Source of the DNA: Escherichia phage AV110
Length of the DNA: 64,000 nucleotides
Sequence record: OR352940.1
Reading direction: 5' to 3' (one strand)
In this document: one piece after another, positions 42,258 to 42,713 of the stretch
Layout of the letters: each line of letters starts with the position of its first letter
How positions within the stretch are numbered: the first letter of the stretch is position 1
The notes under the pieces: generated by a model
Told to the model about the DNA's origin: nothing
Database searches by the model: none
The model's input: the letters and a program-made list of their open reading frames with translations, nothing else
Made by a program: the position numbers and the translations under genes

Positions 42258-42713
42258 TTATTTTAGATCTTCGGCCCAATCTAGTTTTAAGGGTTCTTTG
42301 TATTCACGGTCGAGAATAACCGGAATAGCTACATCACCACTGAATGATAGTTGGCCAACGTTATATGATAACGTTATATGTGGAGTGTAGTCGTCGAAAT
42401 CATGAGTAGCACCTAAAGCTCGTGCATACTGATGACGACATCTAAGATATTCGGAATCAAGAACTAAAACCAGTACAGCGCCGTCGTCAGTTTTCCATAC
42501 CTCAAAGTGTCCTGATTCGGCAATAGAATAACTACCACTGGATGTAGTATATGGTATGTTTACACGTGAATAACAAATTGTTGAATGAAGCTTTTCACGT
42601 GGTACTGGATTAGGAATTCTTAATTTGCGCTGGAGGTCTTCCAGCGCATCAAGTGTTAATTCCGAAAATTTAGCTGCGACGTAGAGGCCTTGTGAAAAGT
42701 CCTCAAATTTCAT
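42258..42713 (-). CDS. 57B: gp57B, anti-CBASS nuclease Acb1 (2H phosphoesterase with two HxT motifs)
   Basis: 151-aa ORF directly upstream of 57A as in T4; motifs HSTICY and HITLSY. Confidence 0.75.

Follow-up and report, generated by a model that had tools for sequence, protein, structure and literature searches.

An acb1 ortholog predicted to encode an anti-CBASS nuclease in the genome of Escherichia phage AV110

We analyzed a stretch of 64,000 nucleotides from the sequence record of Escherichia phage AV110 (OR352940.1), referred to here as the window, and found that one of its open reading frames (ORFs) very probably encodes a functional Acb1, the anti-CBASS nuclease of T-even phages. We put the probability of this reading, which covers both the identity and the function of the protein, at about 0.93. 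An earlier note on this DNA had singled out the same ORF for two motifs, HSTICY and HITLSY, and had proposed that it is the ortholog of T4 gene 57B. Both motifs were found in the raw sequence, and the orthology was confirmed by profile matching and by alignment. The ORF is an ordinary 57B/Acb1 ortholog of the T4 type; what is reported here is known biology, and nothing changes for the family. The positions of the gene, its motifs and its neighbors are listed in Table 1.

Table 1 Positions of the genes and motifs discussed in the text.
Feature	Position	Strand	Details and basis
regB	25984-26466		REGB_T4, E 7.2e-69
acb2 (vs.4 ortholog), predicted cyclic-dinucleotide sponge	26719..26985	-	88 aa + stop; PDB 7UQ2 (T4 Vs.4), E 2e-29
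ipI (internal protein I, nuclease-inhibitor family), directly downstream of acb1	41893..42180	-	Pfam PF11634 IPI_T4, E 1.4e-50
acb1 (gene 57B ortholog), predicted 2H-phosphoesterase anti-CBASS nuclease	42258..42713	-	151 aa + stop; ATG start (ORF list)
C-terminal lid LDWAEDLK, residues 144-151, including W146 (T4 W147)	42261..42284	-	Alignment with T4 and FBB1 Acb1
Second catalytic motif HITLSY, residues 112-117 (H112, T114; T4 H113, T115)	42363..42380	-	Direct reading
First catalytic motif HSTICY, residues 43-48 (H43, T45; T4 H44, T46)	42570..42587	-	Direct reading
Gene 57A (tail-fibre chaperone), immediately upstream of acb1	42713..42943	-	Pfam PF17594 GP57, E 5.9e-23
Gene 1 (dNMP kinase), which opens the compact run 1-57A-57B	42948..43682	-	Pfam PF21448 DNMK, E 1.9e-96

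Family membership and active-site residues

The predicted protein matches the Pfam model of Acb1 (PF23474) at E 1.8e-58, with a score of 196.8 bits where the curated cut-off is 27. Residues 8-149 align to positions 1-144 of the 144 in this profile, so that its full length is covered. Direct alignment with T4 gp57B (NP_049750.1) gave 85% identity over the full length, with a length difference of one residue; numbers in the T4 protein are those of the window protein plus one. As the earlier note had stated, T4 gene 57B is the published Acb1, named and characterized both biochemically and genetically by Hobbs et al. in 2022 (PMC9117128). The protein also matches the PDB entries 7T26 and 7T27 (E 7.9e-59), whose chain is the Acb1 of Erwinia phage FBB1 and not the T4 protein (PMC9117128). 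A single-sequence AlphaFold2 model did not reach the quality that a fold search requires (mean pLDDT 39.5, pTM 0.32), and the fold assignment therefore leans on the match to 7T26. The 64% identity to that sequence implies a compact 2H phosphoesterase fold.

The motifs were found to be weak evidence when they are merely counted. The two H-x-[ST] triplets are the only ones in the protein, which has five histidines, and two or more such triplets occurred in 13.6% of shuffles of its sequence. We therefore rejected the motif count alone as evidence for acb1. The extended form H-x-[ST]-[ILVMC]-x-Y appeared twice in only 0.005% of the shuffles. The real evidence for Acb1 is homology, where the Pfam and PDB scores lie far outside what chance would give.

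In T4 Acb1, the tetrad H44/T46/H113/T115 (HxT/HxT) sits over the scissile phosphate, Y12, W74, F107 and W147 are the stacking aromatics, E141 touches the adenine N6, and residues 145-152 form a lid (PMC9117128). H43, T45, H112 and T114 of the window protein align to this tetrad with no gap between the motifs, and its Y11, W73, F106, W146 and E140 are identical to the T4 aromatics and glutamate. Thus all nine residues named for T4 Acb1 in that study are conserved, and none of the 23 differences between the two proteins falls on a named functional residue. The lids differ only as LDWAEDLK in the window and LDWADDLK in T4.

Conservation of the same residues extends to more distant relatives. The FBB1 protein, for which 7T26 is the apo structure and 7T27 the complex with 3'3'-cGAMP, aligns with the window protein over residues 9-148 and shares both motifs, Y11, E140 and W146. 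The loop that follows its fourth strand is one residue longer, and F and Y stand in place of W73 and F106 of the window and T4 proteins, so that both positions are still aromatic. We also aligned ten homologs from eight genera (Tequatrovirus, Mosigvirus, Muldoonvirus, Acajnonavirus, Krischvirus, Tulanevirus, Schizotequatrovirus and Slopekvirus) and an unclassified Vibrio phage. In all ten, down to 28% identity, the tetrad, Y11 and E140 were invariant. Loss of the catalytic histidines, which the earlier note had named as the observation that would speak against its reading, was thus not seen: H43 and H112 are kept throughout.

By its sequence, the window is assigned to Mosigvirus, the RB69-like T-even phages, whereas T4 belongs to Tequatrovirus. 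The DNA of the region is 97-98% identical to that of Mosigvirus phages, including ATK47, JS09 and WFbE185. An identical protein is encoded by Shigella phage SSE1 and Escherichia phage ECO26.1 3-1; with an identity of 99% or more it occurs in 118 phage records, and homologs occur in 1,469. The protein sequence is already public, usually unlabelled or mislabelled: the identical SSE1 protein stands in GenBank as 'hypothetical protein', and records of related phages name the ortholog either that or 'RNA ligase'.

Gene neighborhood, expression and alternative readings

The genes around acb1 follow one another on the minus strand in the order 3, 1, 57A, 57B/acb1 and ipI. The earlier note had placed acb1 upstream of 57A, which needs correction: with both genes read from the minus strand, acb1 is downstream of 57A. 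The order 3-1-57A-57B was also found in T4 and in PS2, Acj9, SSG23, 50AhydR13PP, phi-ST2 and KP27, that is, in T4 and six other genera. In T4, as in the window, genes 1 and 57A precede acb1 and ipI follows it, all on one strand.

The run is tightly packed. By their ORF coordinates, gene 1 and 57A are just a few bases apart, and the junction sequence shows that the 57A stop codon and the acb1 ATG overlap as TAATG, an overlap of 1 nt compared with 4 nt in T4. From the start of 57A to the stop of acb1, the sequence holds no terminator-like site. A hairpin of this type falls within the 3' end of gene 1 (42979-42995, minus strand) and was taken as chance because such sites barely exceed expectation (5 found, 2.2 expected). 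No MotA box was found upstream of acb1 on the minus strand. The sigma-70-like matches ahead of the gene are weak (9 of 12 positions) and lie within coding sequence, and such sites numbered 12 against 9.6 expected. A late-promoter-like TATAAATA was found within gene 1 (43298-43305, minus strand). With these weak intragenic matches and the TATAAATA inside gene 1 as the only upstream candidates, a promoter specific to acb1 was rejected and read-through from genes 1 and 57A was preferred. The sequence before the acb1 ATG, GAAGAAGAA, is merely purine-rich and holds no strong Shine-Dalgarno sequence, so that expression probably depends on coupling to 57A. This arrangement makes it most likely that acb1 shares a transcript with genes 1 and 57A and that its translation is coupled to theirs.

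Downstream, the 77-nt gap before ipI holds a sigma-70-like promoter, TTTACA-17-TACTAT with a TG in front, at 42215-42243, and a second promoter-like site near ipI lies at 41860-41888. With acb1 and ipI, two predicted anti-defence genes stand side by side. In Mosigvirus ATK47, the internal-protein gene Ip7 (309 nt) lies between ipI and trna.4; in the window, which is without Ip7, a gap at 41843-41892 separates ipI from a trna.4-like ORF (41636-41842). The absence of Ip7 explains why several relatives matched the window in two pieces with about 360 extra bases.

The database labels raise the question of whether the protein works on RNA ends as a generic 2H phosphoesterase, such as a LigT-like 2'-5' RNA ligase or a cyclic phosphodiesterase, rather than as an immune-signal nuclease. 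Its PHROG match, phrog_755, is labelled 'RNA ligase', this is also the product name in the RefSeq records of T4, ATK47 and others, and there is a weak match to Pfam 2_5_RNA_ligase2 (PF13563; E 0.012). LigT and 2'-5' RNA ligase enzymes of this family likewise have two HxT/S motifs, the 2H fold and metal-independent acid-base chemistry (PMC9117128). However, the substrate of LigT-type enzymes is an RNA end, whereas the characterized Acb1 orthologs act on a cyclic oligonucleotide immune signal. The PF13563 match covers only residues 69-131 and, at 16.1 bits, falls below the curated cut-off of 27, in contrast to the whole-protein match to the Acb1 model. In addition, the residues that contact the cGAMP bases are all kept, and the T4 protein, 85% identical, degrades CBASS signals, an activity that was abolished in infected lysates by its deletion (PMC9117128). 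The misleading product names go back to phrog_755 and to the generic 2H/LigT superfamily name, and not to an experiment. We therefore rejected the 'RNA ligase' reading of the labels, and consider an enzyme of RNA ends highly improbable here.

An intact-looking frame could also have lost its expression or activity, as has happened in some natural T-even phages under pressure from Panoptes. A natural nonsense mutation in acb1 is found in the related BASEL phage Bas43, and Bas35 readily gains inactivating mutations (PMC13577387); the missing strong Shine-Dalgarno sequence in front of the acb1 ATG would fit such a decayed or silent gene. In the window, however, the frame is full length, all catalytic and substrate residues are present, and the overlap with the essential gene 57A would give translational coupling. 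The identity of 99-100% across more than 100 phage records points to purifying selection on acb1. A decayed or silent gene thus seems extremely unlikely, and a functional Acb1 is the reading that we retain. Since acb1 has been naturally inactivated in related phages under Panoptes (PMC13577387), 'intact' is a meaningful state of the gene and not a surprising one.

The acb2 ortholog and the regB-denV block

The earlier note had stated that vs.4, the second anti-CBASS gene of T4, maps between regB and denV, but could not assign its ortholog to an ORF of the window. The T4 record agrees with this and places vs.4 between vs.3 and vs.5. In the window, we found the ortholog in the same place and with the same length of 88 amino acids. 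Its product is 67% identical to T4 Vs.4, the match to 7UQ2 spans the whole T4 chain, and the score for the Pfam model Acb2_Tad1_hairpin (PF24729), 62.5 bits (E 4.4e-17), exceeds the cut-off of 27. The gene was hidden in the ORF list because the mechanically called ORF (26719-27153) extends upstream to a TTG at 27153; within that ORF, the Acb2 match is confined to residues 59-144. The ATG at 26985 has a GAGG ribosome-binding site in front, the stop codon overlaps the vs.3 ATG as TAATG, and the same 267-nt gene is annotated as 'gpvs.4' in Mosigvirus JS09.

To characterize this predicted sponge, we compared its residues with those described for T4 Vs.4. There, Y8 and F82 provide stacking, H11, K23 and R79 make hydrogen bonds and salt bridges, S74 and T12 are also named, and L29, F33, A66, A73 and A77 form the hexamer interface (PMC10097602, Jenson et al. 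2023). All of these residues (Y8, H11, T12, K23, L29, F33, A66, A73, S74, A77, R79 and F82) are identical in the window protein, while its middle helix (residues ~38-65) has diverged from T4. A separate pocket for cyclic trinucleotides needs R67 and T74 of the PaMx33 protein; of the two, T74 alone has a conserved equivalent in T4, and Acb2 homologs without residues of this type bind fewer ligands (PMC10312549, Cao et al.). The pocket is optional in the family and absent from some members. The T4 equivalents of R67 and T74 were taken as D61 and T68, from the T4 D61R mutant described in that study. At these two positions T4 Vs.4 keeps one trinucleotide-site residue (T68), whereas the window Acb2 keeps neither (0 out of 2) and has Q61 and Q68 instead.

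The presence of Q61 and Q68 suggests a sponge for dinucleotides only, which would leave trinucleotide signals to Acb1. It is doubtful, and in our estimate rather unlikely, that Acb1 and Acb2 of Mosigvirus divide the work more sharply than in T4, with cAAA and cAAG handled by Acb1 alone. If this were true, acb1 would be the sole determinant of escape from trinucleotide CBASS and of sensitivity to guard systems based on cA3, such as type II Panoptes. On this reading, the 23 substitutions relative to T4 Acb1 could also change the substrate preference.

The surrounding block differs in extent from the earlier description, which had it end at 28412. Two denV sequences lie beyond that point, both on the minus strand: a short, truncated 5' copy at 28586-28684 (32 amino acids, 82% identical to T4 DenV over residues 1-28) and the full-length gene at 29715-30128 (92% identical to T4 DenV). 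Three internal-protein-like genes are located between the two copies. The same layout was found in JS09, where the short copy is annotated as a second 'endonuclease V'. Four small genes on the minus strand (28741-29043, 29070-29384, 29448-29708 and 30187-30483) each start with MK(T/M)Y(Q/K/S)EF(I/L), a leader that we take to be typical of T-even internal head proteins. A 69-nt repeat covers the start and the upstream region of the three genes between the denV copies, with 62-74% identity and spacings of 341 and 324 nt. By its layout, this set of genes looks like a shuffling cassette.

Other genes of the block were noted alongside. Compared with the 219-aa T4 annotation, vs.8 is split into two minus-strand ORFs, 28409-28525 and 27873-28412, which are in different frames and overlap by 4 nt. 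The 38-aa ORF corresponds to residues 1-35 of T4 Vs.8 (91% identical) and the 179-aa ORF to residues 38-219 (86% identical); JS09 annotates only the 179-aa part. The split may be a real frameshift, may represent two genes, or may reflect over-annotation in T4. The vs.6 ortholog (27199-27561, minus strand) has a glycine-radical domain (Pfam Gly_radical, E 2e-18) with the motif RVSGYAV and is annotated as 'autonomous glycyl radical cofactor GrcA' in both T4 and JS09. The vs.1 ortholog (25433-25975, minus strand) begins with what resembles a signal peptide, and its match to the SLT lytic-transglycosylase family is weak (E 0.0013), with 18.8 bits falling short of the cut-off of 21.3.

Proposed mechanism and implications

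The sequence itself shows homology, conserved residues, synteny and an intact frame; the catalysis, substrate range, expression and in vivo anti-CBASS effect of the window Acb1 are what we infer, with the chemistry and the phenotype carried over by analogy from T4 and FBB1. Metal-independent cleavage of 3'3'-cGAMP, cUA, cAAA and cAAG and the rescue from CBASS are known only for the orthologs of these two phages (PMC9117128). By this analogy, the ligand of the small, metal-independent enzyme would be a cyclic di- or trinucleotide, bound in a U-shaped pocket between the aromatics Y11, W73, F106 and W146. E140 would recognize one adenine by its N6, and the lid at the C terminus would shut over the ligand. 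The 3'-5' bond on the 3' side of the adenosine would next be cut by H43, T45, H112 and T114, in an acid-base reaction that passes through a 2',3'-cyclic phosphate. The enzyme would thereby linearize the adenine-containing signals 3'3'-cGAMP, cUA, cAAA and cAAG. We propose that, with the cyclic signals linearized, the CBASS effectors would never be switched on. Encoded by an unlinked gene of this genome, the Acb2/Vs.4 sponge would add a second countermeasure by sequestering cyclic dinucleotides.

For annotation, these results mean that the acb1 gene should be labelled Acb1 and the ORF at 26719-26985 Acb2. For phage biology and for host range in phage therapy, the presence of intact acb1 and acb2 predicts resistance to many CBASS systems. 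The same pair of genes also predicts vulnerability to guard systems such as Panoptes, which are triggered by the depletion of cyclic nucleotides (PMC13577387).
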